Below are positions 1,314 to 60,414 of a DNA stretch of 64,000 nt, one piece after another. A model generated the notes under the pieces. The model did not search any database. It was given only the letters and a program-made list of their open reading frames with translations, and was not told where the DNA came from. The translations under genes were made by a program, and so were the position numbers. Source of the DNA: a virus (taxonomy: Duplodnaviria > Heunggongvirae > Uroviricota > Caudoviricetes); IMG/VR virus record IMGVR_UViG_3300010882_000009, one strand, 5' to 3'. Positions within the stretch are counted from its first letter, which is position 1, and every line of letters starts with the position of its first letter.

Positions 1314-1401
1314 TTACAAATATTCACACAGTTTTAAGATTTAACTTTTAATCAAATATTCATTCTATTCAAATATTAAATAATAAGGAGATTAAATTAA
1401 A

Positions 1402-2715
1402 ATGGCTTATTGCGCATATATAACAAGAATAAAAAACTTAAGAAGACATACAAATGCTGATAAACTCCTGATTGGAGAGTGTTTTGGAAACAACGTTATA
1501 GTAAGTACAAATATATCAGAAGATGAATTAGGAATTTATTTCCCAATAGATGGTAAACTATGCAATGAGTATTGCGCGGCAAATAATCTTCTACGTAATA
1601 AAGATGCAGATGGAAATCAAATAGGTGGATTTCTTGATCCTGAAAAGCGAAATATTAAAGCTATAAAACTAAGAGGTGAAATGAGCGATGGTTTATTTAT
1701 GCCATTGATTTCACTTAATAAATTTACAGATGTTTCTATACTTAATGAAGGAGATTCTATAACTATATTAAATGGACTTTTAATTTGTGAAAAGTATATT
1801 CCTATGGGCAAACATCGTAGACAAAGTGTGGGGAAAAATAAAGAGAAATCTAAAAAAATATATGATAAAACAAGTTTTCCCTTATTTATGGAACATTATG
1901 ATACATCACAGCTTGTATATAATAAAAACGCTTTTAAAGAAGGAGATCAGTGTGAAATTACTTTAAAGATGCATGGAACCTCACAACGCACATCTTATAC
2001 ATTAAAAGAGACAAGAAAATATTTGCCATATTGGTTAGTTAAAATATTTAAAGCGTTAAGATTGTTACCTAAAATTAAAAAATCATGGGAATATGTATGC
2101 GGAACAAGAAGAGTTGTGCTAAAAGACTTAAATGGTGGCTACTATGGAAGTAATGCTTTTCGACAACGGCATCATGACAGATTTGTTGGCAAACTTCAAA
2201 AAGGTGAAACTGTTTATTATGAGGTTGTTGGATATGTTTCCCCCAACACTCCTATAATGGCAGATTGCTCGAATAAAAAAGTTAATGATAAAGAATTCAT
2301 TAAACAATATGGTGACAAGACACGTTTTTCATATGGTTGTGATGACGGTGAGAGCCAAACCTATGTATATAGAATGACAATTACAAATGAGGATGGCTAT
2401 GTAGTTGAGTATCCATATGGATTAGTGAAGCTTCGTTGCGAACAAATGGGGGTTAGGTATTGTCCTACATATGAACGTTTTACTTATACAACATTTGAAG
2501 ATCTTATGGAGCATGCAAATAAATATTGTGATGGGTTCGATCCAATTGGTAAAACACATATAAAAGAAGGCATAGTTGTTAGAATTGAAAACAGAGAAAG
2601 ATTTACAGCATTTAAGCATAAAAACTGGCACTTCAAAGTTATTGAGGGAATTATTAAAGACTCAGCTACATCACCTGATATTGAAGAAGCACAAGAAATA
2701 ATAGATTATAATTAA
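1402..2715 (+). CDS. RNA ligase (Rnl2/DRB0094-like) with N-terminal tRNA-binding OB-like domain
   Basis: Motif I KMHGTS, EVVG, KEGIVVR, AFKHK; N-terminal HTNADKL and KLRGEMSDG. Confidence 0.8.
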   Translation: MAYCAYITRIKNLRRHTNADKLLIGECFGNNVIVSTNISEDELGIYFPIDGKLCNEYCAANNLLRNKDADGNQIGGFLDPEKRNIKAIKLRGEMSDGLFMPLISLNKFTDVSILNEGDSITILNGLLICEKYIPMGKHRRQSVGKNKEKSKKIYDKTSFPLFMEHYDTSQLVYNKNAFKEGDQCEITLKMHGTSQRTSYTLKETRKYLPYWLVKIFKALRLLPKIKKSWEYVCGTRRVVLKDLNGGYYGSNAFRQRHHDRFVGKLQKGETVYYEVVGYVSPNTPIMADCSNKKVNDKEFIKQYGDKTRFSYGCDDGESQTYVYRMTITNEDGYVVEYPYGLVKLRCEQMGVRYCPTYERFTYTTFEDLMEHANKYCDGFDPIGKTHIKEGIVVRIENRERFTAFKHKNWHFKVIEGIIKDSATSPDIEEAQEIIDYN

Positions 2716-2730
2716 AAGGGCGTTATCATA

Positions 2731-3393
2731 ATGAATGATGGAACAATATTAACTCCATTATATAATATTGGAGATGTTTTAATAATAAGAAAAGATTTCA
2801 CTTATGAGATTGATGGTGGAACAAAACATTGTGTCCCACCAATGGGGAAATTCAAAGGAAAAATTGTAACAATTAGCAGAGTAATAAAAAAGATGAATCG
2901 TATAGTGTATGAGATAAAAGAAGATGGTGGGACACTTTTATGGCCTGAATATTTATTTGAAAGAAAAGATGCGAAAAAGAAAAAAGTATTCTTAGGCGGT
3001 ACATGTAATAATAGCACTTGGAGAGATTTACTAATAAGCATGTTAAAAATAGGCTATTTTAACCCTGTTGTTGATGATTGGACTCCAGAGTGTATGGTAG
3101 AAGAATGCAAACAGCGTGAAGAGTGCGACTATTGCTTATATGTGATCACTCCAAAAATGCATGGTGTATTTTCAATTGCTGAAGTAGTAGATGACAGCAA
3201 TAAGCGACCAGAAAAAACATTGTTTTGTTTTTTAGAAGAAGATGATGGACTTACGTTTGATAATGATGAAATTAAGTCTCTTAGGGCTGTTGCAATAATG
3301 GTTATAGAGAATGGCGGCAAAGTATTTCAGAACCTTGACTCTATTGCTATCTGGTTAAATAATAGAGTCTACAAGTCATACAAGTCTGAATAG
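2731..3393 (+). CDS. fusion protein with C-terminal nucleoside 2-deoxyribosyltransferase-like domain
   Basis: KVFLGGTCNNSTWRD, YFNPVVDDW, YVITPKMHGVFSIAEVVD. Confidence 0.65.
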   Translation: MNDGTILTPLYNIGDVLIIRKDFTYEIDGGTKHCVPPMGKFKGKIVTISRVIKKMNRIVYEIKEDGGTLLWPEYLFERKDAKKKKVFLGGTCNNSTWRDLLISMLKIGYFNPVVDDWTPECMVEECKQREECDYCLYVITPKMHGVFSIAEVVDDSNKRPEKTLFCFLEEDDGLTFDNDEIKSLRAVAIMVIENGGKVFQNLDSIAIWLNNRVYKSYKSE

Positions 3394-3408
3394 AACAGGC
3401 ATTCTATT
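3389..3408. repeat. dispersed 7-6-7 palindrome, copy 1
   Basis: AATAGAA-CAGGCA-TTCTATT overlapping the TAG stop of 2731..3393. Confidence 0.75.
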
Positions 3409-3429
3409 AAAATAAAAGAGGTGATATGA

Positions 3430-3867
3430 TTGTTTAATAAGGATTTGTATTTACAATTATGTGAAGAATATGGTGTTCAAGATGCAGATACACTAGAAGG
3501 CGGTATAATTGTTGACGGTAAAGAAATTACGACGGAAGAATTTAAAGACATTATTTCACCATCGCTGGACTGGCGAACTATGTTTGCGGGGTTAGAAAGT
3601 AGATTTGATATGCTTGGAGCAGTAAAGTTAAACACAGAAATAGAACAACTATATAGATATAGTAATTGGGTTAATATATTAGCAGATTTTGATTGTAAAG
3701 ATTATATTATTATTGAAGCATGGGAAACAATACATCATAGCGATGATAGTAAAATTATAGCATTAATATATGATTCAGGAGAAGTAGTCTATAAAGACAA
3801 TAAAGCAAAGACAGATAAATATGCACAGTATGTTATCAATAATGTATTGAATGGGTTAACCGATTAA
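3430..3867 (+). CDS. hypothetical protein
   Basis: GAGGTG RBS, TTG start. Confidence 0.7.
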   Translation: MFNKDLYLQLCEEYGVQDADTLEGGIIVDGKEITTEEFKDIISPSLDWRTMFAGLESRFDMLGAVKLNTEIEQLYRYSNWVNILADFDCKDYIIIEAWETIHHSDDSKIIALIYDSGEVVYKDNKAKTDKYAQYVINNVLNGLTD

Positions 3868-10602: not shown

Positions 10603-10631
10603 TTGACAATATACAATAGATACAGTATAAT
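10603..10631 (+). promoter_or_regulatory. consensus sigmaA promoter upstream of the NAD cluster
   Basis: TTGACA-atatacaatagatacag(17)-TATAAT. Confidence 0.85.
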
Positions 10632-11053: not shown

Positions 11054-11590
11054 ATGAGTAAGGTTCTTATAGTAGTAGATGTTCAAGAGGATTTTGTAAC
11101 AGGGGCATTAGGGAGCGATCAGGCACAGAAGATTACTCCTAATGTAATAGAAAAAATTAATAATTATCGCTCAAATAAAAATAGCATTATTTTTACACGA
11201 GATACGCACAATGACGATTATATGAATACACAAGAGGGGCAATATCTTCCTGTCCCACATTGTTTGATAGGTACAGGTGGATGGGATATATATGACGGAT
11301 TAGAAGATAAAATGGATATTAAAATCGACAAATCAACATTTGGATACTTGGGATGGAATGATAATGATTGTACTGACAGTCTGCTTATGTCAGCAGATGA
11401 AATTGAAATATGTGGTTTATGCACTGGCATATGCGTAGTATCCAATGCACTTATTCTTAAAGCAATGTATCCAGAAACAAAAATCACCGTAGATGCGTCA
11501 TGCTGTGCATGTGTAAGTGAAGAAAGCCATCTTGCGGCATTAACAGTATTGCGTTGTTGCCAAGTAAATATTATTAACGACGAGCAATAG
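11054..11590 (+). CDS. pncA: nicotinamidase (isochorismatase-family cysteine hydrolase)
   Basis: VVDVQEDF, TRDTH, PHC, DKSTF, GLCTGICV (D-K-C triad and metal ligands); NAD-gene context. Confidence 0.85.
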   Translation: MSKVLIVVDVQEDFVTGALGSDQAQKITPNVIEKINNYRSNKNSIIFTRDTHNDDYMNTQEGQYLPVPHCLIGTGGWDIYDGLEDKMDIKIDKSTFGYLGWNDNDCTDSLLMSADEIEICGLCTGICVVSNALILKAMYPETKITVDASCCACVSEESHLAALTVLRCCQVNIINDEQ

Positions 11591-11624
11591 ATTGCAATAT
11601 TAAGTGATAGGATGTGATAAGTAA

Positions 11625-12431
11625 ATGATAAAAGTGAATGGGGAAGAATATATATACGGGTTCTTCCCCGATGGGACATTACTAATGCGATTTAAGGTAG
11701 ATGAAGATATAAATAATATTCAATATAGGTTGACATGGGATTTCGAAACCCTTACAGAGCAAATCGTTCTTCAAAATTTGGTTTGGCATATAAAAGAAAA
11801 GAATCCAAATGCACGAATCACACTTCATCTTGACTATACACCAAATGCGAGGTTAGATAGAATAGAAAAACCAGATGATATATTTACATTAAAATACTTT
11901 GCAAGAGTTATTAATGAATTAGGATTTGATCGTGTATATATACTTGACCCACATTCCCCAGTAGCACCAGCTATTATAAATAATGTATATATAGATATTA
12001 ATAGATATTTAAAATTTGTGAATATAGTTATTGACAAGACTACTCCTGATTTGCTTTATTACCCGGATTCTGGATGCAAGAAACGACTAGAAAATCTTAT
12101 TAAGCATCCTAATATTTGTGGGTATAAGGATAGGAATTGGGATACTGGAGATATACTTGATACAGAAGTTCTAGGTGCTAAAAAGCATAACTTAACAGGA
12201 AAAACAATTTTAATAACAGATGATATTTGCAGTTATGGTGGAACATTTCTATATGCAGCAAAGAAGCTAAAAAATCTGGGTGTTGGAAAGATATATTTAT
12301 ACATCACACATTGTGAGAATTCAATATTAAATGGTGAACTTATTAATAGCGGATTATTAGAAAAGATATATACAACACGTTCTATATTCACTGAGGAACA
12401 TCCGTTAATTGAGATATTACAAAATAACTAA
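11625..12431 (+). CDS. ribose-phosphate pyrophosphokinase-like protein (candidate ADPR-PP synthase)
   Basis: FPDGT, PNARLDR, LDPHS, YPDSG, PRPP-binding ITDDICSYGGTF. Confidence 0.88.
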   Translation: MIKVNGEEYIYGFFPDGTLLMRFKVDEDINNIQYRLTWDFETLTEQIVLQNLVWHIKEKNPNARITLHLDYTPNARLDRIEKPDDIFTLKYFARVINELGFDRVYILDPHSPVAPAIINNVYIDINRYLKFVNIVIDKTTPDLLYYPDSGCKKRLENLIKHPNICGYKDRNWDTGDILDTEVLGAKKHNLTGKTILITDDICSYGGTFLYAAKKLKNLGVGKIYLYITHCENSILNGELINSGLLEKIYTTRSIFTEEHPLIEILQNN

Positions 12432-12444
12432 AAGGAGTTAATAA

Positions 12445-14025
12445 ATGGGGCTATATGGTATTGTGGACGGATATAAAATTTGCCATCCTTTTTTACAACC
12501 TAAAAGCGTAAGCCATGTATTTACTGGTTGGACAGGAAGATATAACAAGTATCAGCAAGAAGCTAAAAATACAGTTATATGGGGGCAACAAGCAAGAATC
12601 AAACAATATATGATTGATTGGTTTGATAATAATTTCTTTTATAAGGATGTAGATGATTTAGAGAAAAAACATGTAAGAAATGTTTCTATATGTTTTAGCC
12701 CACGATATTCTGATTTTTCTAAATTTAGAAAACTTTATGAGCTTGGCTATCTTCCAATCGAAATATGGGGGTTGCCAGAAGGAACACTTTGCCCAGTTAA
12801 TGTTCCAGACCATTGGATTAGAAATACACATCCTGATTTTGGTTGGCTACCTCAGTATCTTGAAGATTTATGGTCAACGCATAACTGGATGCCTCCAACA
12901 TCTGCTACAACTGGGCATGATAGAAGAACATTACAACAAAAATATGTAGATATAACATGCGAAGATACAAATATAACAAAATATATGATTAGTGATTTTA
13001 GCTTGCGTGGAATGGCTGAAATGGAATCAGCAGCCATGGCATCAAGTGGAGGGCATTTATTATCGTTTGCTAAATCAGCAACAATGGGATCAGCAGATTT
13101 CTTAGAAAAATATTATAACGCAGATATAGAAAAAGACTTAACTAATATGGCTACTCCATCTTTAGAGCATAGCATTGTATGTCAACTTATAGCAGAATTT
13201 GAAAATATGTTACTATCTGGTGGAGAATACAAAGGCATAACATGGGATAAATATAAAAATTCTAAACGTGAAGATGGTAGCCCAGTTGATATTAAGCTAG
13301 TCGCTGAAATGTGTGTTATTAAATACCTTATTACAGATGTACAGCTAGAAGGCGCATTGTCTTATGTATCCGACACATATGACTATTGGGGCGTACTTAC
13401 ATGGATACTACCAAAGTTAATAGATGATATATGTAATAGACAAGGCGCATTAGTAATCCGTGCCGATTCTGGCGATCCAATTAAGATTACATGTGGTGAT
13501 TCACTTGCTGATTTATGGTATGAAAAAATTGGCAGTCTTCGAGTATTAAAGAAAATATTTGGAGTAAGTACAAACAAAAAAGGGTATGATGTTCTTCCTT
13601 CACAAATAAGAATGATTTACGCAGATGCTATAACAAGAGAACGGCAAGAAAAAATTCTTAAACGTTGTGTTGAAATGAAAATATCTGTAGAAAATATATT
13701 TTTTGGGATTGGTTCAGTAAGCTATCAATATGTCACACGGGACACCCGTGGTTATGCAATAAAAGCTACTAGCTGTATTATGGATGGTATAGAAGTTGCT
13801 ATTCAAAAGAATCCAAAAACGGATAGCGCTAAAGCATCACAAAAAGGCTGTTTTGCAGCACATTATGATTCATTGGGCGAGATTACATATACAGATGAAT
13901 TGACATATGAAGAAGCTATTAATTTTGAAGGGAATTTATATGTTAAGAAATTTGTAGATGGCAAACAATATAATATAGATGATTTCGCTACTATTCGCAA
14001 TAGATTATGGAATAGCAAGTTTTGA
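12445..14025 (+). CDS. NAMPT-family phosphoribosyltransferase (candidate nicotinate ADPR-transferase)
   Basis: DGYKICH, DFSLRG, EHS, VSDTYD, RADSGDP, TRDTRGYAIKAT, KNPKTD..KASQKG. Confidence 0.88.
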   Translation: MGLYGIVDGYKICHPFLQPKSVSHVFTGWTGRYNKYQQEAKNTVIWGQQARIKQYMIDWFDNNFFYKDVDDLEKKHVRNVSICFSPRYSDFSKFRKLYELGYLPIEIWGLPEGTLCPVNVPDHWIRNTHPDFGWLPQYLEDLWSTHNWMPPTSATTGHDRRTLQQKYVDITCEDTNITKYMISDFSLRGMAEMESAAMASSGGHLLSFAKSATMGSADFLEKYYNADIEKDLTNMATPSLEHSIVCQLIAEFENMLLSGGEYKGITWDKYKNSKREDGSPVDIKLVAEMCVIKYLITDVQLEGALSYVSDTYDYWGVLTWILPKLIDDICNRQGALVIRADSGDPIKITCGDSLADLWYEKIGSLRVLKKIFGVSTNKKGYDVLPSQIRMIYADAITRERQEKILKRCVEMKISVENIFFGIGSVSYQYVTRDTRGYAIKATSCIMDGIEVAIQKNPKTDSAKASQKGCFAAHYDSLGEITYTDELTYEEAINFEGNLYVKKFVDGKQYNIDDFATIRNRLWNSKF

Positions 14026-14064
14026 TTAGATTTGTATAAATACACTGAAAGGATGTGAAGATTT

Positions 14065-14943
14065 TTGCAAGAAACAATTAAAACATATCGTATAGCACAC
14101 AAAGATAATCAACATGGTATGTGGTATAACGCTGATGGCTCTTATAATGGATTTATTCACACACTTACAGAAGGACGCTGCGCTGATATGCCAATGGGGC
14201 ATGACGACAAATACAGAAAAGACGGGAAACGTTGGTATAGTGGAGCCAAAGATAAGTCGCAGATGAACTTCTGGTTCTCTGTTATGGATGCCTACGAATT
14301 GGAAACCGCAGGATACTATCTATATGAGTATGAGATTAATGAATATTGGAAGGATGATATACAAGTTTATTTTACACAAGAAGGTGTAATAAGCCAGACT
14401 CGTATTCCTATTGATACGATGTTTGACATAAGCTCTATTAAGTATACAGGTGTTCTCAATAATAAAACAGAAGTAACAGAATATTATATTAAAGGATTCT
14501 TTGAGAAATATAGGCCATTAAGCAATTTTGATACAACTAAATTTATAATGGATGGCATAACATTTAAATCAGCAGAGCATGCATTACAATATTACAAAAC
14601 AGATTGTTCAGAATGGAAAGAGAAGATTTTAAATACGCCTACTCCTGCAAAGGCAAAAGAATATGGTCACCAATGCCCAATGAAAGACGAATGGGAAGAT
14701 ACAAAGGTTAAGATTGTTCAAGAGATATTATATAATAAGTTTTCTCAGAATGCACATTTAAGAGCATTCCTACTTAACACTGGCTTTAAATATTTGGAAG
14801 AAACAAACAATTGGGGCGATGATTTTTGGGGAGTTTATAATGGCGCTGGAAAGAATATGATGGGTAAGGCTCTTATGATAGTTAGGACGCGGTTATTAGC
14901 AGAAAGGCTTGTAATGCGGAGAATGGGGGTTGCTAATGTATAA
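14065..14943 (+). CDS. N-terminal unknown domain fused to NADAR (YbiA-like) domain
   Basis: C-terminal LSNF, SAEHALQYYK, KFSQN..L...LL.TG...LEET..WGDDFWG..GKNMMGKALM. Confidence 0.85.
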   Translation: MQETIKTYRIAHKDNQHGMWYNADGSYNGFIHTLTEGRCADMPMGHDDKYRKDGKRWYSGAKDKSQMNFWFSVMDAYELETAGYYLYEYEINEYWKDDIQVYFTQEGVISQTRIPIDTMFDISSIKYTGVLNNKTEVTEYYIKGFFEKYRPLSNFDTTKFIMDGITFKSAEHALQYYKTDCSEWKEKILNTPTPAKAKEYGHQCPMKDEWEDTKVKIVQEILYNKFSQNAHLRAFLLNTGFKYLEETNNWGDDFWGVYNGAGKNMMGKALMIVRTRLLAERLVMRRMGVANV

Positions 14944-15709
14944 ATTTAATGAAGATAAGGTTAAAGACGATTTAGCACAGTGGATTAGAGATTATTTTAA
15001 TAAAAATGGGATGAATAGCAAAGCTGTTATTGGGATATCAGGCGGCAAAGATTCAACAATCGTTACTGGGCTATGTGTTGAAGCTTTAGGCGCTGATAGA
15101 GTATTCGGAGTACTCATGCCACAAGGGTGCCAGTGGGATTTGCATGTTGCTGAATTAGTATGTAAATACTTCGGCATTAAAAATATTACTATCAATATAT
15201 ACGATGCCGTTAATGAAATTTATCGTCAAGTATCTAATAAGCTATTAAGTACTGACGATGATAATTTTCTTAACTCAGTTGTTACAAATAATACCCCGGC
15301 TCGAATCAGAATGACCACGTTATATGCTATTTCTGCTCAAATAAATGGCAGAGTAGCTAATACGTGTAATCTTAGTGAAAATTATCTTGGGTGGAATACA
15401 AAGTATGGTGATGATGCTGGAGATTTTTCTCCGCTGGCAAGCCTAACAAACAATGAAGTTGTGCGTATAGGAATGGCACTTGGTATTGATTATGACTTAA
15501 TATTTAAGAAGCCAGAGGATGGTCTTACTGGCAGAACAGACGAAGAGAATTTTAGATTTACATATTCAGAATTAGACAAATACCTTCGTGGTGGTGAAAT
15601 TAATCCAGATGTAGTTGCTAAAATACAAATAATGCATAATGATGGAATTCACAAGATGACAAAAATGCCATATTTTCCATATAACCCATATAAGCATTGC
15701 GGAGATTAA
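14930..15709 (+). CDS. nadE: NH3-dependent NAD+ synthetase
   Basis: GISGGKDS PP-loop, ARIRM, TCNLSE, TKYGD, DGL...TDEE. Confidence 0.93.
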   Translation: MLMYKFNEDKVKDDLAQWIRDYFNKNGMNSKAVIGISGGKDSTIVTGLCVEALGADRVFGVLMPQGCQWDLHVAELVCKYFGIKNITINIYDAVNEIYRQVSNKLLSTDDDNFLNSVVTNNTPARIRMTTLYAISAQINGRVANTCNLSENYLGWNTKYGDDAGDFSPLASLTNNEVVRIGMALGIDYDLIFKKPEDGLTGRTDEENFRFTYSELDKYLRGGEINPDVVAKIQIMHNDGIHKMTKMPYFPYNPYKHCGD

Positions 15710-36957: not shown

Positions 36958-36986
36958 TTGACAATATACAATAGTTATAGTATAAT
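36958..36986 (+). promoter_or_regulatory. consensus sigmaA promoter for ligA
   Basis: TTGACA-atatacaatagttatag(17)-TATAAT. Confidence 0.85.
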
Positions 36987-37011: not shown

Positions 37012-37876
37012 ATGGTTCAATTGCCAAGTGCATTAGATGTTAAAAACTTAGTTGGTAAATTAAATATTTATAGAGATACATATTATAACGATAATGTTTC
37101 TTTAGTATCAGACGCAGAATATGATAAACTTTATGATAAGTTGTTAGAATTGGAAAAAGAAACAGGAATAATAATATCTAATTCGCCTACACAATCTGTT
37201 GGATATATAGTAAAATCAGAATTAGGAAAAGTAATACATGATATTCCTATGCTTAGTCTTGACAAGACTAAAGATATAAATAAAATTTTAAGTTTTATGC
37301 AAGATAAAGATTTAATTGCAAGTCTAAAGTTAGATGGACTTGCAATTAAATTAAAGTATGACAAAGGAAGGCTTATACAAGGCTCTACACGTGGAAATGG
37401 CGAGGAAGGGGAAGATATTACTCATAATGTACATACATTTGTAGGTGTTCCATTAACAATACCATATAATGATTATATAGAAATAACAGGCGAATGCATT
37501 ATCCATTATGATTCTTTCAACAAAATAAATGAAAGTATTATTAATAGTGATGACAAATATAAAACTCCAAGGAATTTAGTTTCCGGTTCAGTTAGACAGC
37601 TTAATAGCGAAATATGTAAGAGTAGGAATGTTTATTTTTATGCATATAATATATCTAAAGATGATGGAGATATAATATATAATAAAACAGAAGAGTTAAA
37701 TAAACTTATTACACTTGGATTTAATTATGTTATGTCTATACCACCATGCAACAGTAATTATATTGAAATTGAATCAATAATTAATGATCTTAAACAATCT
37801 GCTAAAGAGACATCAACTCCTATTGACGGAGTTGTATTTACATATAATGATAAAGCTTATGGAGAGTCACTTGGAG
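37012..37876 (+). CDS. ligA: NAD-dependent DNA ligase, exon 1
   Basis: SDAEYD, PMLSL, KLDG, TRGNGEEGEDIT, IDGVVF; ends ...ESLG at the insertion. Confidence 0.92.
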
Positions 37877-38021
37877 TAACTAACAATTATTAAATATGTA
37901 GTCATATGTGTATAACTATAGTCATACATATACATATATTTTTAATAATTATATCGCTCCGCATGTAGAGTAATCTGCATGTAGTGGTAGATAGTGAAAA
38001 ATATCTGCCCAGCAAAGCAAC

Positions 38022-38297
38022 AATTGCTGGTAAACCCCTAAGGCCAACTAAGCTACAGCATAAGGATGAAATATGCCTAAGTGCGATATGCAGCGAAAGC
38101 AGAAAAAATTAGTTGGATGGCATATGGTTAAATCCTAAGTGCTAGTAAAAAGGGGCGTTCAGCAGCATATACCTGAATAGGGTACTGTTCAACGACTATC
38201 CCTCGCGAGGGGAGTAGGGTGAAGTCACCCGAAACGAGCTTACCTTCTATTAATAGAAGGGTTGATGATATAGTCTGTGCTTATGTGAAAGCATAAG
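38022..38297 (+). ncRNA. group I intron catalytic core
   Basis: P AATTGCTGGTAAA (38022), Q GTTCAGCAGC (38157), R TTCAACGACTA (38188), S ATGATATAGTC (38265); P7 GACTA/TAGTC; P9 CTTATG-TGAAAG-CATAAG. Confidence 0.88.
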
Positions 38298-38317
38298 GAG
38301 TTCATTACTCTTTTCTA

Positions 38318-38346
38318 TTGACATTATTAAAATTATATGTTATTAT
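38318..38346 (+). promoter_or_regulatory. internal promoter for tnpB
   Basis: TTGACA-17-TATTAT inside the intron, about 150 bp upstream of tnpB. Confidence 0.6.
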
Positions 38347-38499
38347 AATAATGTTAGTTGTAATAGAGAGTTTGAGAACCGTATGAGATTAACGACCTCA
38401 TATGAACACGCTAAAAATGTAACGCAATTGTGTATGTTTTTATTTGTTTAAAATCAAACACTCCTTTATAAAATAATTATAAAAGGAGGTGAATACACC

Positions 38500-39726
38500 A
38501 TGATTAAAGGATATAGAATAAGATTATTCCCAACGCAAGACCAAGAAGAGAAACTATGGCAACATGTAAATGCTGCTAGAGCAGTATGGAATTGGGGACT
38601 TAGTTATGAGATGGATTTGTTTAAGAATAACGAAAAGCATTTAAGTGCTTATGCATTAAGAAAAATTCTTACGCAAATTAAGAAAACTGATGAGTATAAT
38701 TGGCTTAATCAAGTTTCATTTCATACATTGTCAAACGTGTTAATTGATTTAGGTGATGCATATAACAGATTCTTTAATATTAAACCAGCTAAGTATTCTA
38801 AAAATAAAATGGTTAAAGCTAAAAGAATTGGGAAAAAGCTAACACCATATGATTTAGAAGGGCATCCTAAATTTAAATCACGTAAAGATAATATAAATAA
38901 GTTTCCAATTAGAGTTGATAGTACATATTTTATTAACTCATATGTTAATATAGAAAAAATAGGTAAGATTAAATACCAAACAAATTATAATCTGCCACAA
39001 GGCAGAGACAGTAAGATAAGCAATCCACGAATAAAACATGAAAATAATAAGTGGATATTATCATTTGGTATTGAGTGTGAGAACCAAACACTAAATCTTA
39101 CAGATAAATCTCTTGGGATTGATTTGGGAATAACATATTTAGCAGTATGCTCTTTCGGAGGAGAAAAAATAGTTTTTCATAATATTAATAAGTCTAAGCG
39201 TATGAGAAATTTAGAAAATAAAAAGAAATATTTGCAGCGCAAAATTTCTCGTAAGTATAGAACTAATGGCAATTATAATAAGACTAATAATATTATCAAA
39301 ACAGAAAAAATCCTTAAAAGAGTACAGTCAAAGTTAACTAATAAACGCAAAGATTACATACATCAAACTACACATAAACCAGTTTCATTATTACCTAAAA
39401 GAGTAGTAATGGAAGACTTAAATGTGAGTGGGATGATGAAGAATAAACACCTATCAAAAGCTATTCAAGAACAATGCTGGTCTGAATTTATGAGACAGAT
39501 TGGATATAAATGTGAGTTTATAGGAAGCGAATATATTCAAGCCAATAGATATTATCCGAGTAGTAAGAAGTGTTCTATTTGTGGCAATATCAAGAAGGAT
39601 TTGAAGCTAAAAGATAGAGTGTATATATGTGAAGTATGCGGATTAGAAATTGATAGAGACTATAATGCTGCTATAAATCTGGAAAGATATGAGTATGATA
39701 GCTATAGCAATAGAAAGTACAAATAG
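38500..39726 (+). CDS. tnpB: RNA-guided endonuclease TnpB
   Basis: YRIRLFPT..Q, RuvC-I GIDLG, RuvC-II MEDL, Zn finger CSIC/CEVC, RuvC-III DRDYNAA; AAGGAGGTG RBS. Confidence 0.95.
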   Translation: MIKGYRIRLFPTQDQEEKLWQHVNAARAVWNWGLSYEMDLFKNNEKHLSAYALRKILTQIKKTDEYNWLNQVSFHTLSNVLIDLGDAYNRFFNIKPAKYSKNKMVKAKRIGKKLTPYDLEGHPKFKSRKDNINKFPIRVDSTYFINSYVNIEKIGKIKYQTNYNLPQGRDSKISNPRIKHENNKWILSFGIECENQTLNLTDKSLGIDLGITYLAVCSFGGEKIVFHNINKSKRMRNLENKKKYLQRKISRKYRTNGNYNKTNNIIKTEKILKRVQSKLTNKRKDYIHQTTHKPVSLLPKRVVMEDLNVSGMMKNKHLSKAIQEQCWSEFMRQIGYKCEFIGSEYIQANRYYPSSKKCSICGNIKKDLKLKDRVYICEVCGLEIDRDYNAAINLERYEYDSYSNRKYK

Positions 39727-39868
39727 AAAGCTATCAGCTTAAGGAACATGGTGTATCCTTGAATACTGTGGAGTGTTAAACAAACTGTAGTAGGGAATTC
39801 CGAGGCAGGACACAGCGAAACAGCGAACAAATAAAAATGTATACATATGTCTACATTTTTAGCACCAG
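39727..39868 (+). ncRNA. putative omegaRNA scaffold / element right end
   Basis: Structured non-coding segment between tnpB stop and the right junction, ending in palindrome AAAAATGTATACATATGTCTACATTTTT then AGCACCAG; 5' boundary uncertain. Confidence 0.6.
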
Positions 39869-40992
39869 TAACATCACATCATCCATTACATTCTATTGCA
39901 TTTAAGTTTGAAGACGAATCTGTTGAAACAATTTTACGAGATATAGAATGGTCAATGGGAAGAACATGTATTACACCAGTTGCAATATTTAATACAGTAG
40001 AAATTGATGGGACTGATATATCACGAGCAAGTTTACATAATGTTAGCATATTCCAAGAATTTGAACTAGGAATTGGAGATACTATTAGCATCTTTAAGGC
40101 TAATCAAATTATTCCTCAAGTGCTAGAAAATAAGACTAAAAGCAATACAGCGACTATCCCAAATATTTGTCCAGTATGTGGTTCAAATACAGCAATACGA
40201 ACATCTAAGCTAACAAAAATATTAGTATGTACATCTAACAAATGCAAAGGAACATTGTTAAGCAGAATTGTTCACTTTGCAAGTAAAAAGGCAATGAATA
40301 TAGATGGATTATCATCTGAGACTATTGAGAAATTTATTGACAATAATATAATTGAATCATTTGCTGACATATATAGAATTGAAGAATATAAAGATAAAAT
40401 AATATGTATAGAAGGTTTTGGTAAGCGTTCATATGAAAAATTAATAAAATCAATTGAAAAAAGCAAAAAAGTAAAATTGCATAAATTTATTATATCTCTT
40501 GGGATACCTAATATTGGCACAAAAGCATCTAAGACTATTAGCAAATACTTTAATGGAGAATGGTTATTATTCGAGCAAGCTATAATAGATGGATTTAATT
40601 TTAGGTGTCTTGATGATTTTGGAGATATTATGCATAAGAATATTTATAAATATTTTCAAAATAAAGATAATATTAAATTATATTCTGAATTACTTGAATT
40701 CATTGAATTTGAAACAAATGATTTAGAACAATCAAATATAATAATCAAAGATAATCCATTTATAGGAAAGAAAGTATTGGCAACAGGAACACTTGAACGT
40801 TATTCAAGAGATGGTATTAAAGCAAGGCTAGAGTCAATAGGGGCTATACCTATTAGTGGTGTATCAAAGAAAACAGATTATGTCATCGCTGGGAGTGCTG
40901 CAGGGCAATTAAAAATCGATAAAGCTAATGAACTGAATATCCCTATATTAACTGAAATGGAATTTCTTAAAATGATTGGTGATATTATATGA
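39869..40992 (+). CDS. ligA: NAD-dependent DNA ligase, exon 2
   Basis: SHHPLHSIAFKF, TPVAIF, RASLHN, CPVC, HhH GFGKRS, BRCT SGVSKKTDY; spliced product about 662 aa. Confidence 0.92.
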
Positions 40993-44382: not shown

Positions 44383-45021
44383 ATGAAGGTATATGAGAAG
44401 ATGCGCTCTCTTAAAAAAATAGAACGCTGGCGATATATTGAACAACGGTTTTTAAGTTTAGCTAGAGTGCTATGGAAAGAGCTTGAAGACAAACTATCAT
44501 CATTTGCAAAAGCAGATGGTGATAGTATTGATATAGTAAAAGAAGAGCTGGTTGCTATAAATAATTTATTCTTAAACTGGTTTTATTCAAATGTAGAAGC
44601 AGAAGAATGGAAAGATACATTTATATATCCAGATAGTTATGAAGTTAGCAATAAAGGAAGAGTTCGTTCAAAAGATAGAGAGATAATAAATCCATCTACT
44701 AACACAGGAACTCAAAAAAGAAAAGGTAAAATATTAAAACAAACAATTAGTACTAAAGGATATCCACAAGTTGGGCTTAGTGCTAATGGCAAAAGAATAA
44801 CAATTAATGTACATAAATTAGTAGCAGTAGCATTCCTTCCAGACCCAGGCCCTATTCCAGAAGGTGAGAAGTATTGGGAAGTGAACCACAAATTTGGTGA
44901 TAAGTTAAACCCAGATGTAGCTAATCTTGAATGGGAAACTGGCGATGGGAATAGAAAACATGCTGTTGAATATGGATTAAGGGGAAGCAAATATGGTAGA
45001 GATATAGAGTTCGTTGATTAA
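44383..45021 (+). CDS. NUMOD4/HNH homing-endonuclease-like protein
   Basis: EEWKD....YEVSNKGRVRS; VHKLVAVAF, EVNHK.GDK.N....NLEW. Confidence 0.85.
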   Translation: MKVYEKMRSLKKIERWRYIEQRFLSLARVLWKELEDKLSSFAKADGDSIDIVKEELVAINNLFLNWFYSNVEAEEWKDTFIYPDSYEVSNKGRVRSKDREIINPSTNTGTQKRKGKILKQTISTKGYPQVGLSANGKRITINVHKLVAVAFLPDPGPIPEGEKYWEVNHKFGDKLNPDVANLEWETGDGNRKHAVEYGLRGSKYGRDIEFVD

Positions 45022-57710: not shown

Positions 57711-58016
57711 ATGAAACTTGTAAATGTGAATATAACTGAAACACCTGCTTATTTTACCACTTATAAAATTTCTGTTCCAGATGACATTTCAAATGATAAG
57801 CTTGATAAAATTCTTCGTAAAATCAGAAAAAAGAATTCTATAAATGAAATTAATGAACTATTTGAAAAACATAACATTAAAATACTTAATACTGAAATCC
57901 CATCACATCCTTCCTCCGTCATATCATTTGAATTAAATGATTATGAATTTATTAATAGCGTTACTATCCCAACAATTGAACTTTGTGAAGACAAAGAACA
58001 GGAGTATCTAATATGA
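57711..58016 (+). CDS. hypothetical protein, family member 1 of 3
   Basis: V.ITE...PDD.S..KLDKIL.KI...ELF.KH...SFELNDYE. Confidence 0.75.
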   Translation: MKLVNVNITETPAYFTTYKISVPDDISNDKLDKILRKIRKKNSINEINELFEKHNIKILNTEIPSHPSSVISFELNDYEFINSVTIPTIELCEDKEQEYLI

Positions 58017-59657: not shown

Positions 59658-59984
59658 ATGAAAACAATGAAGGTAAATGTTACAGAATCAAAACATCTTT
59701 TTAAAACACATACAATTATTATACCAGATGATATGTCTGATAAAAAATTAGATAAAGTACTTAAAAAAATTGATAAAAAAGAATCTTTAGTAGAAATTAC
59801 AGAATTATTTAGCAAACATGGTATTAGTCTTTTGTCAACAATTGCAAATAATTTGCCATATGCTGATAAAATAAGTTTTGAGTTAAATGATTATGAAGAA
59901 GTTATGCTAGAAGGCGACTATGAAGAAGAAGATGAAGTGGTAAATTTGGGGCATGCTGTTATTAATTATTCACATAATAATTAA
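59658..59984 (+). CDS. hypothetical protein, family member 2 of 3
   Basis: PDDMSDKKLDKVLKKI...SFELNDYE. Confidence 0.75.
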   Translation: MKTMKVNVTESKHLFKTHTIIIPDDMSDKKLDKVLKKIDKKESLVEITELFSKHGISLLSTIANNLPYADKISFELNDYEEVMLEGDYEEEDEVVNLGHAVINYSHNN

Positions 59985-60027: not shown

Positions 60028-60414
60028 ATGAAAACAATTAGTGTAGATATCACAGAAAAGCGTGTATATAATAAGACTCATACACTTGGATTTCCTGATA
60101 CTATGACAGACAAGCAAATAGATAAAATCATTCTCAAAATTGATAAGCTTAAATCACCTGATCAAATTAATGCTCTATTAAATAAATATGGAATACACTA
60201 TATAGAAGATGATAACTTGCAGCAACCTTTTAAATATAAATTTGACGTTTTAAGTTATGATTATTATGATTTTAATTATTTAGCTTTAGATTTAGATAAA
60301 AAAGATGAAGATAAAGAAGATGAATATTCAGATGCAGATACAGATACAGATACAGATAATAATTGTGATGGTATTTGTTGTTCTTGTAATAATTATTTGA
60401 TGTGTACAGATTAA
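60028..60414 (+). CDS. hypothetical protein, family member 3 of 3, acidic/Cys tail
   Basis: PDTMTDKQIDKIILKI; DTDTDTD and CDGICCSC tail. Confidence 0.75.
   Translation: MKTISVDITEKRVYNKTHTLGFPDTMTDKQIDKIILKIDKLKSPDQINALLNKYGIHYIEDDNLQQPFKYKFDVLSYDYYDFNYLALDLDKKDEDKEDEYSDADTDTDTDNNCDGICCSCNNYLMCTD

Follow-up and report, generated by a model that had tools for sequence, protein, structure and literature searches.

A transposase-less IS607 IStron of the AG/CAG type in the DNA ligase gene of a likely clostridial phage, with predicted self-splicing and RNA-guided homing

The window, by which we mean the entire 64,000-nucleotide stretch of viral DNA analyzed here (IMG/VR record IMGVR_UViG_3300010882_000009), codes for a phage-type replication block made up of a DnaB-like helicase, DnaE, RecD2, the NAD-dependent DNA ligase LigA and NrdD, together with a tail-fibre-like gene. 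Inspection of ligA reveals two exons separated by an insert that carries group I intron helices followed by a tnpB gene (Table 1). This TnpB is on record on three contigs, the longest of 225 kb, and the nearest named ligase to LigA is that of Clostridium phage c-st (47.7%); for these two reasons the source is likely a large phage of Clostridia. The stretch also occurs in three sequencing runs labelled termite gut metagenome, which may be where it comes from. Elsewhere in the window, a run of genes (11054-15709) resembles an NAD salvage set by its N-termini, with members that we take to be nicotinamidase-like, phosphoribosyltransferase-like and NAD synthetase-like; such a set fits an NAD-dependent ligase. 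A free-standing gene for a NUMOD4 (HNH-type) endonuclease (44383-45021) lies right after a phage promoter, and three short paralogous ORFs (57711-58016, 59658-59984 and 60028-60414) share an N-terminal pattern.

Table 1. Features of the interrupted ligA locus (window coordinates)
Feature	Position	Strand	Remarks
Whole IStron	37877..39868	+	1992 bp; starts TAAC, ends CAG
ligA exon 1	37012..37876	+	Ia and adenylation domain up to motif IV; K106, D108, E157, D272
ligA exon 2	39869..40992	+	Motif V (K301), OB fold, HhH, BRCT
Promoter-like site of ligA	36958..36986	+	TTGACA-17-TATAAT, 12/12 positions; one of four similar phage promoters in the window
Target site GGAG (TGGAG including position -5)	37873..37876	+	AG, predicted core dinucleotide; TGGAG, predicted (inferred) TAM
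AU-rich left-end hairpin in P1 loop	37885..37950	+	Carries left inverted-repeat arm (37896-37912) and in-frame stop (37891-93)
Internal guide sequence GCUCC	37956..37960	+	Pairs with exon GGAG; U.G with intron base +1
Group I core P2-P8 with P7.1 and P7.2 (IA2 features)	37961..38276	+	P7, 38192-38198 with 38271-38276
P9.0 5′ strand (38278-79), P9 (GAAA loop), extended P9.1, P9.2, GAACAC motif	38278..38409	+	Structure and covariation; GAACAC at 38404-09
Promoter-like site in P9.1 extension	38318..38346	+	TTGACA-17-TATTAT with TG; predicted tnpB/omegaRNA promoter
AU-rich stem, 5′ arm, closing the ORF region	38429..38448	+	Pairs with 39826-39845
tnpB	38500..39726	+	408 aa; RuvC D208/E305/D387 and zinc finger intact; RBS AGGAGG (38484-38489)
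omegaRNA scaffold	39727..39868	+	Pseudoknot 39749-39754 with 39862-39867; RAGATH-18 match 39765-39826; terminal G 39868
Right inverted-repeat arm	39840-39856	+	Within the omegaRNA scaffold region

The ligA reading frame opens at 37012 and meets a stop at 37893, shortly inside the insert, and the remainder of the gene follows the insert to 40992. Removal of 37877-39868 yields a 662-aa LigA ORF that reads LG/VTSHHP, with the exon boundary after the first base of the Val codon; the 1992-bp split of ligA described in the initial annotation is therefore exact in its coordinates and restores the frame. The rejoined junction is gap-free against all eight viral ligase loci compared, and residues 280-302 are gap-free against 120 of 120 intact database ligases (41-53% identity). 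LigA retains 119 of the 124 columns that are at least 95% conserved in these 120 relatives, including K106, D108, D272 and K301. Because the 6-bp sequence AGTAAC is repeated at both junctions (37875-80 and 39867-72), seven excision registers lead to an identical LigA product. We chose 37877..39868 as the only one of the seven in which the insert ends in a 3′-terminal G, which is obligatory for a group I intron. The repeat consists of the AG core plus a match between the left end and exon 2, and is absent from other AG elements. The exon junction proposed earlier is right; excision at the DNA level would yield the same junction, and the register of the cut cannot be read from it alone.

What we take to be motif IV of LigA (D272) lies on one side of the insert, and motif V (K301) lies on the other together with every C-terminal domain. 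With the break between these two motifs, exon 1 cannot act as a ligase by itself, and because motif V and the C-terminal domains are cut off from motif IV we infer on sound grounds that ligase production would depend on splicing. A search for empty ligA alleles in related phages, as the initial annotation proposed, found no close one among eight viral loci, 120 database ligases and the viral contigs. The eight viral loci with DNA differ from the window in the guide-matching bases, the nearest of the 120 intact ligases are the 41-53% identical relatives named above, and a 19-nt window stretch that fits both filled and empty alleles had 0 matches in viral contigs. Contigs of runs X1-X4 show no joint that skips the element; contigs drop rare variants, so excision cannot be judged from them.

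The 5′ 556 nt of the insert give a folding z of -5.95. In blastn, the insert resembles an intron of phage D-1873 that is annotated as group I, as well as many phage introns. The suggested check with a group I covariance model came back negative, the Rfam group I model having no match to the insert at gathering score or at E<=10, so that the group I assignment rests on the similarity to the D-1873 intron and on covariation. Relatives were gathered via TnpB alignments (80 viral, 56 metagenome and 24 genome loci) and with a P2 pattern (11 loci), and 15 chosen introns were aligned from P2 to P9.2 with the structure drawn on the window sequence. Across these 15 introns 92.7% of 1400 cells are paired, versus 36-44% in slid controls. 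Double-sided changes are found in 54 of 94 intron pairs, with 0/500 shuffles as high, a count that is not a probability because the rows are related and the structure was taken from one of them. All six pairs of P7 form in 15 of 15 introns, and P3, which has only four standard pairs in the window, covaries in four of five columns. Each part of the group I core named in the initial annotation (P, Q, R, S, P7 and P9) is present. The window intron also has P7.1, P7.2 and P9.0-P9.2, which are IA2 features given for IStrons in the available text of PMC4227781, where a GAACAC-type motif is listed as well. A pattern for the window's exact Q-R spacing retrieved nothing.

Inspection of J5/4 indicates that the window intron is without the usual AA. 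This A-poor state is common to many relatives, and since these include the TnpA-bearing c-st element (L080) and its close copies, it represents a trait of the lineage and not damage. We also considered the A-poor J5/4 as a mark of a dead ribozyme or as the cause of cutting after G; both ideas were dropped, as many relatives share it and other introns that cut after G keep AA. Five relatives (L011, L094, L095, L097 and L122) tolerate long palindromic or tandem insertions in the loops of P5, P6a and P8.

At the 5′ splice site, the GGAG that ends exon 1 pairs with CUCC (37957-60), and intron base +1, a U, lies opposite G37956. For comparison, we took the 41 distinct insertion sites at which both element ends were found. 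In a hand count of these sites, 19 regain an ORF with 60 or more codons to either side when cut after G, a single one (L153) does so when base +1 is retained, and 21 are uninformative. The guide tracks its target from site to site, with CUCC for GGAG, CCUC for GAGG and CCCC for GGGG. The +1 pair is U.G in 26 sites, C.A in five (all of one lineage), U-A in two and unassigned in eight; together with an apparent A at +1 in L080, these exceptions weaken the idea of an invariant wobble at this position. At the 3′ end, both P9.0 pairs beside the terminal G form in 41 of 41 sites when end motifs are picked by eye and partner bases are read independently, the end being CGG in 27, CAG in 10, CCG in three and UAG in one. 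The 5′ strand of the omegaRNA pseudoknot starts with UG in all nine CAG-ended elements and with CG in 49 of 56 rows scored as CGG-ended, one of which (L113) is mis-scored and ends in CAG. That is to say, at the level of base pairing the CAG end is matched by compensatory changes in both P9.0 and the guide-RNA pseudoknot.

The tnpB gene encodes the three RuvC acidic residues reported in the initial annotation (D208, E305 and D387), with four zinc-finger cysteines beside them. Its product departs from two of 90 conserved columns, compared with departures at 0-6 in 12 relatives, and its best solved-structure match is PDB 8IAZ (E 4.5e-45). The start of tnpB lies 224 nt beyond S, a distance taken up mostly by P9-P9.2, and since just 91 nt remain past P9.2 there is no room for a tnpA. 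The tnpA gene is absent from the element and from the 64-kb window, where the best tblastn match of four IS607 TnpAs (E 9e-4, within ligA) was taken as chance, and the insert does lack a transposase as first proposed. The element occurs as a single copy in the window and holds no tnpA fragment; an antisense ribbon-helix-helix gene found in several relatives is also missing. Its persistence without a transposase of its own, also put forward at the outset, is true of the sequence and is the usual state of IStrons, for TnpA is often truncated or missing in the elements of Table 1 in PMC4227781, where its absence is common and not disqualifying. The imperfect inverted repeat has exactly the sequence first noted, with 15 of 17 matches (equalled by 2 of 300 shuffles), but it does not lie at the very ends, being subterminal by 19 nt on the left and 12 nt on the right. 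Each arm also has a local RNA partner.

From the guide layout given in the available parts of PMC11061315 and 10.1101/2023.11.20.567912, the first 16-20 nt of ligA exon 2 are predicted to serve as the TnpB guide. The pseudoknot is required by TnpB in CboIStron, according to the latter preprint (bioRxiv 2023.11.20.567912, in the part available). No TnpB residue cleanly separated AG-ended from GG-ended types, and a single-protein TnpB scan of viral contigs returned nothing. A scan with a right-end pattern gave 120 loci that were taken as chance, as tblastn showed no TnpB match among them.

The P9.1 loop of the window intron is extended into a long hairpin that holds TTGACA-17-TATTAT. Promoter-like matches are commonplace in the AT-rich window, with 27 found versus 31.9 expected. 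In five of the eight closest intron-bearing relatives (L093-L096 and L122), the same loop holds TATAAT at a fixed place, four times with TG; L097 has TATATT there, and L091 and L092 have no such site. Past P9.2, these five relatives have no strong site, unlike many of the more distant elements. A transcript from the P9.1 site could not splice, and its scaffold and guide would stay joined, because P1-P8 would lie upstream of its start. The window contains four near-identical sigma-70-type promoters (CTTGACA.TATACA...TAT.AT), at 10603, 23552, 36958 and 44032, and fifth and sixth copies of this phage promoter lie on a neighbouring contig of runs X1 and X2.

These features place the insert among the group B (IS607) IStrons and, within them, in the rarer AG type, with GGAG as its site and CAG as its end. 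The initial annotation of an IStron of IS605/IS607 type without tnpA inside ligA is supported and can be narrowed to IS607 group B on three grounds: the last base of the 5′ exon is G, the ORF is enclosed by an AU-rich stem, and the right end carries RAGATH-18. Further group B features are an IA2-like group I intron at the 5′ end, identified by helices and covariation, the U.G pair moved to +1, scarless ends without target duplication, an IS part that lies past P9.2 and GAACAC within the AU-rich stem (38429-48 with 39826-45), and an intact TnpB with a right-end omegaRNA whose pseudoknot reaches the last bases. An IS607 serine-recombinase TnpA is missing. In place of the group B consensus of a GG target and a CGG end, we find GGAG and CAG, which the available text of PMC4227781 describes for CsISt1 as an exception within the group; splicing after G is demonstrated there for BcISt1. 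The group A (IS200/IS605) combination of a TTGAT target, an exon ending in U and a TCAG end does not occur, the site being TGGAG and the end CCAG, and a group A example (L302) looks different from the window element.

Other CAG-ended elements (L012, L014, L017-L019, L091, L106, L107, L109, L110, L113, L115, L119 and L133) occupy a GGAG site wherever the left end is present, with the one exception of AGAG in L107, and none has a tnpA inside. Near-identical TnpA-less AG elements lie at six or more different GGAG sites in other genomes (L017, L018, L019, L109, L110 and L148), which indicates that the AG type is mobile. An autonomous AG-type element does exist, as a distant IStron (L073, approximately 1373-3823) with an AG core, a full 203-aa IS607 TnpA and different ends sits in a phage dnaE-like gene. 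A separate IS607 tnpA lies about 350 bp downstream of a TnpA-less AG IStron (L019:4160-4762, also L295) and is a possible source in trans. In a quick 68-row TnpB tree, AG-ended and GG-ended elements are interleaved, with five of the six TnpBs nearest to that of the window from GG-ended elements; the AG label needs five changes, at least three of them forced by strong branches, so ends and nuclease have been exchanged or switched more than once. The window TnpB may not match TGGAG, and its TAM is a prediction only.

Free-standing introns of the same lineage (L293, L296, L299 and L301) measure 421-525 nt, have no IS part and occupy GGAG sites in phage genes. Each forms P9.0 pairs of its own, and no cut other than one after G restores the frame. 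Three of them (L296, L299 and L301) share one site in a tape-measure-like gene of three divergent phage contigs, and the fourth lies in a possible terminase-region gene. These introns may be ancestors or stripped descendants of IStrons. Eight relatives (L012, L017-L019, L106, L109, L110 and L148) carry a 52-53-aa antisense ribbon-helix-helix-like ORF between intron and tnpB, with a shared divergent promoter region; its likely match is the Arc-like ORF of bioRxiv 2023.11.20.567912, as far as the available text goes. The intron core of L107 is deleted, such that its left end joins tnpB almost directly. L012 sits 3 nt before an ATG, and because GGAG is also the core of the Shine-Dalgarno sequence, an AG-type element is able to insert into a ribosome-binding site.

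Boundaries, restored frame, covarying intron helices, intact tnpB, RAGATH-18 scaffold and lack of tnpA are read directly from the sequence. Our main reading, to which we give a probability of about 80%, is that of a non-autonomous IS607 AG/CAG IStron that likely self-splices from the ligA transcript and likely uses TnpB with an exon-2 guide to cut and enter empty ligA copies. Insertion at GGAG would have involved an IS607 serine recombinase acting in trans or an ancestral copy still equipped with tnpA. Transcripts from the ligA promoter would fold P1 (GGAG/CUCC, with U.G at +1), be cut after G and not after U, and join exon 1 to exon 2 after G39868 to encode the 662-aa LigA. The stop 15 nt into the intron would halt ribosomes before the core, as proposed earlier for in-frame IStrons. 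Transcripts that start in P9.1, being downstream of P1-P8 and unable to splice, would supply TnpB and uncut omegaRNA. The TnpB-omegaRNA complex would then recognise and cut TGGAG with the adjoining start of exon 2 in an allele that lacks the element, either of a co-infecting sister phage or of an excised copy, and repair would copy the element in; for a move to new sites, TnpA would have to come in trans. The yield of ligase may be low, because splicing in CboIStron is repressed when the pseudoknot is intact, and natural levels of splicing range from 2% to highly efficient (bioRxiv 2023.11.20.567912, available text).

The same locus could instead hold a stranded passenger, in which the intron splices while TnpB either lacks a matching target or has the wrong TAM; the element would then simply be inherited with the phage and would lose tnpB, as the free-standing relatives may have. 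We consider this unlikely, though with some weight. The single copy without tnpA in the window, the lack of a close empty allele among the sequences searched and the disagreement between end type and TnpB phylogeny are all consistent with a passenger, and CseIStron-1 splices well with no detectable cleavage in the accessible part of PMC13521648. The intact state of TnpB, its ribosome-binding site, the promoter-like site and the compensated pseudoknot argues otherwise, as do the near-identical TnpA-less AG elements at six or more GGAG sites, which point to a mobile type. Intact exons would equally be expected if the insertion were recent and had inactivated a dispensable phage ligase, with splicing too weak and the host ligase sufficient. 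Several phage ligases are dispensable in ligase-proficient hosts. The omegaRNA fold is the preferred fate of CboIStron in the accessible part of PMC13521648. We nevertheless regard a recent inactivation as improbable, as the intron is well formed, its guide sequence fits the site, and three relatives (L296, L299 and L301) persist in tape-measure genes, where precise splicing must work.

It is very improbable that the ligase is made in two pieces, with exon 1 (293 aa, stop 37893) and an ORF from ATG 39847 (381 aa) translated separately and assembling without splicing. Both ORFs exist, and the internal promoter-like site could transcribe the second, yet ATG 39847 falls within the right-end repeat and has no Shine-Dalgarno motif immediately ahead of it, and the adenylation domain is broken between motifs IV and V. 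A conserved ribozyme accounts for the layout directly.

Beyond the predicted splicing and homing at ligA, we tentatively envisage, at somewhat less than even odds, a widespread and little-described AG lineage in which CGG was recoded to CAG together with P9.0, the pseudoknot and the internal guide. The free intron at GGAG would possibly predate the fusion, and in the window branch the tnpB promoter would have shifted into P9.1, giving separate starts and an RNA-guided homing intron in an essential-type phage gene. If so, separate starts for splicing-competent and guide-producing RNAs would ease the published conflict between splicing and guide formation. In the available part of PMC13521648 the terminal CGG is termed a three-function "linchpin", and the main text, to the extent available, makes no mention of CAG, P9.0, covariation, wobble or CsISt1. 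Homing of TnpB-only IStrons is described as awaiting experimental validation in the accessible text of PMC13565253. The literature searched, which covered few subscription papers, contained no phage ligA interrupted by an IStron or group I intron, no compensation of a CAG end in P9.0 and the pseudoknot, no promoter-like site inside stem P9.1 and no free-standing introns of this lineage at GGAG sites in phage genes; AG-type elements may appear in the supplements of bioRxiv 2023.11.20.567912. The value of the locus is comparative, as a natural CAG-ended counterpart, with compensatory changes at three RNA pairings, to the CGG-ended element studied so far. It provides a direct test case for the co-evolution of transposon end, splice site and guide RNA, and a clean substrate for asking by what mechanism cutting after G occurs in group B introns and whether homing carries TnpB-only IStrons from phage to phage.

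Phage group I introns with homing endonucleases (T4 td, Twort) are self-splicing, lie in DNA-metabolism genes and carry a looped-out nuclease ORF with its own internal promoter. The window element, for which splicing is predicted, has the same layout, but its nuclease is RNA-guided, it has transposon ends, and its 5′ exon ends in G and not U. ISFba1 and other IS607 TnpBs associated with RAGATH-18 (PMC11061315, available text) share the RAGATH-18 scaffold, include the best solved-structure match (PDB 8IAZ) and have a TAM ending in GGAG, as is predicted for the window element; it is 5′-AGGAG in 18 of 22 strains. In contrast, their TnpB is distant from that of the window, position -5 is T in the window, and that text describes no intron or IStron. 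CbISt3/CboIStron and CbISt4, from C. botulinum phages c-st and D-1873, are likewise phage-borne group B elements in which an IA2 intron is followed by tnpB and an omegaRNA at the right end; DNA identity is 73% across the 30% that matches, and the D-1873 element opens on the left with a motif similar to that of the window. Scarless protein-free splicing and TnpB cleavage are demonstrated for CboIStron (bioRxiv 2023.11.20.567912, available text). These elements differ in having a GG core, a CGG end, targets TGGG or GAGG and a promoter-like site after P9.2 instead of in P9.1, and CbISt3 has the tnpA that the window element lacks. The available text of PMC4227781 already covers group B, copies with ORF B only, the IStrons of phages c-st and D-1873, and a related free intron with a GG site; TnpA-less and phage IStrons are in this sense published, and the window locus is an ordinary, well-formed IStron. 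Compared by that description, CsISt1 of Clostridium sporogenes likewise belongs to the IS607 group, contains ORF B only, follows an AG site and terminates in CAG, but it measures 2369 bp and lies on a bacterial genome contig with an uninterrupted flanking ORF, whereas the window element spans 1992 bp within a phage ligA.
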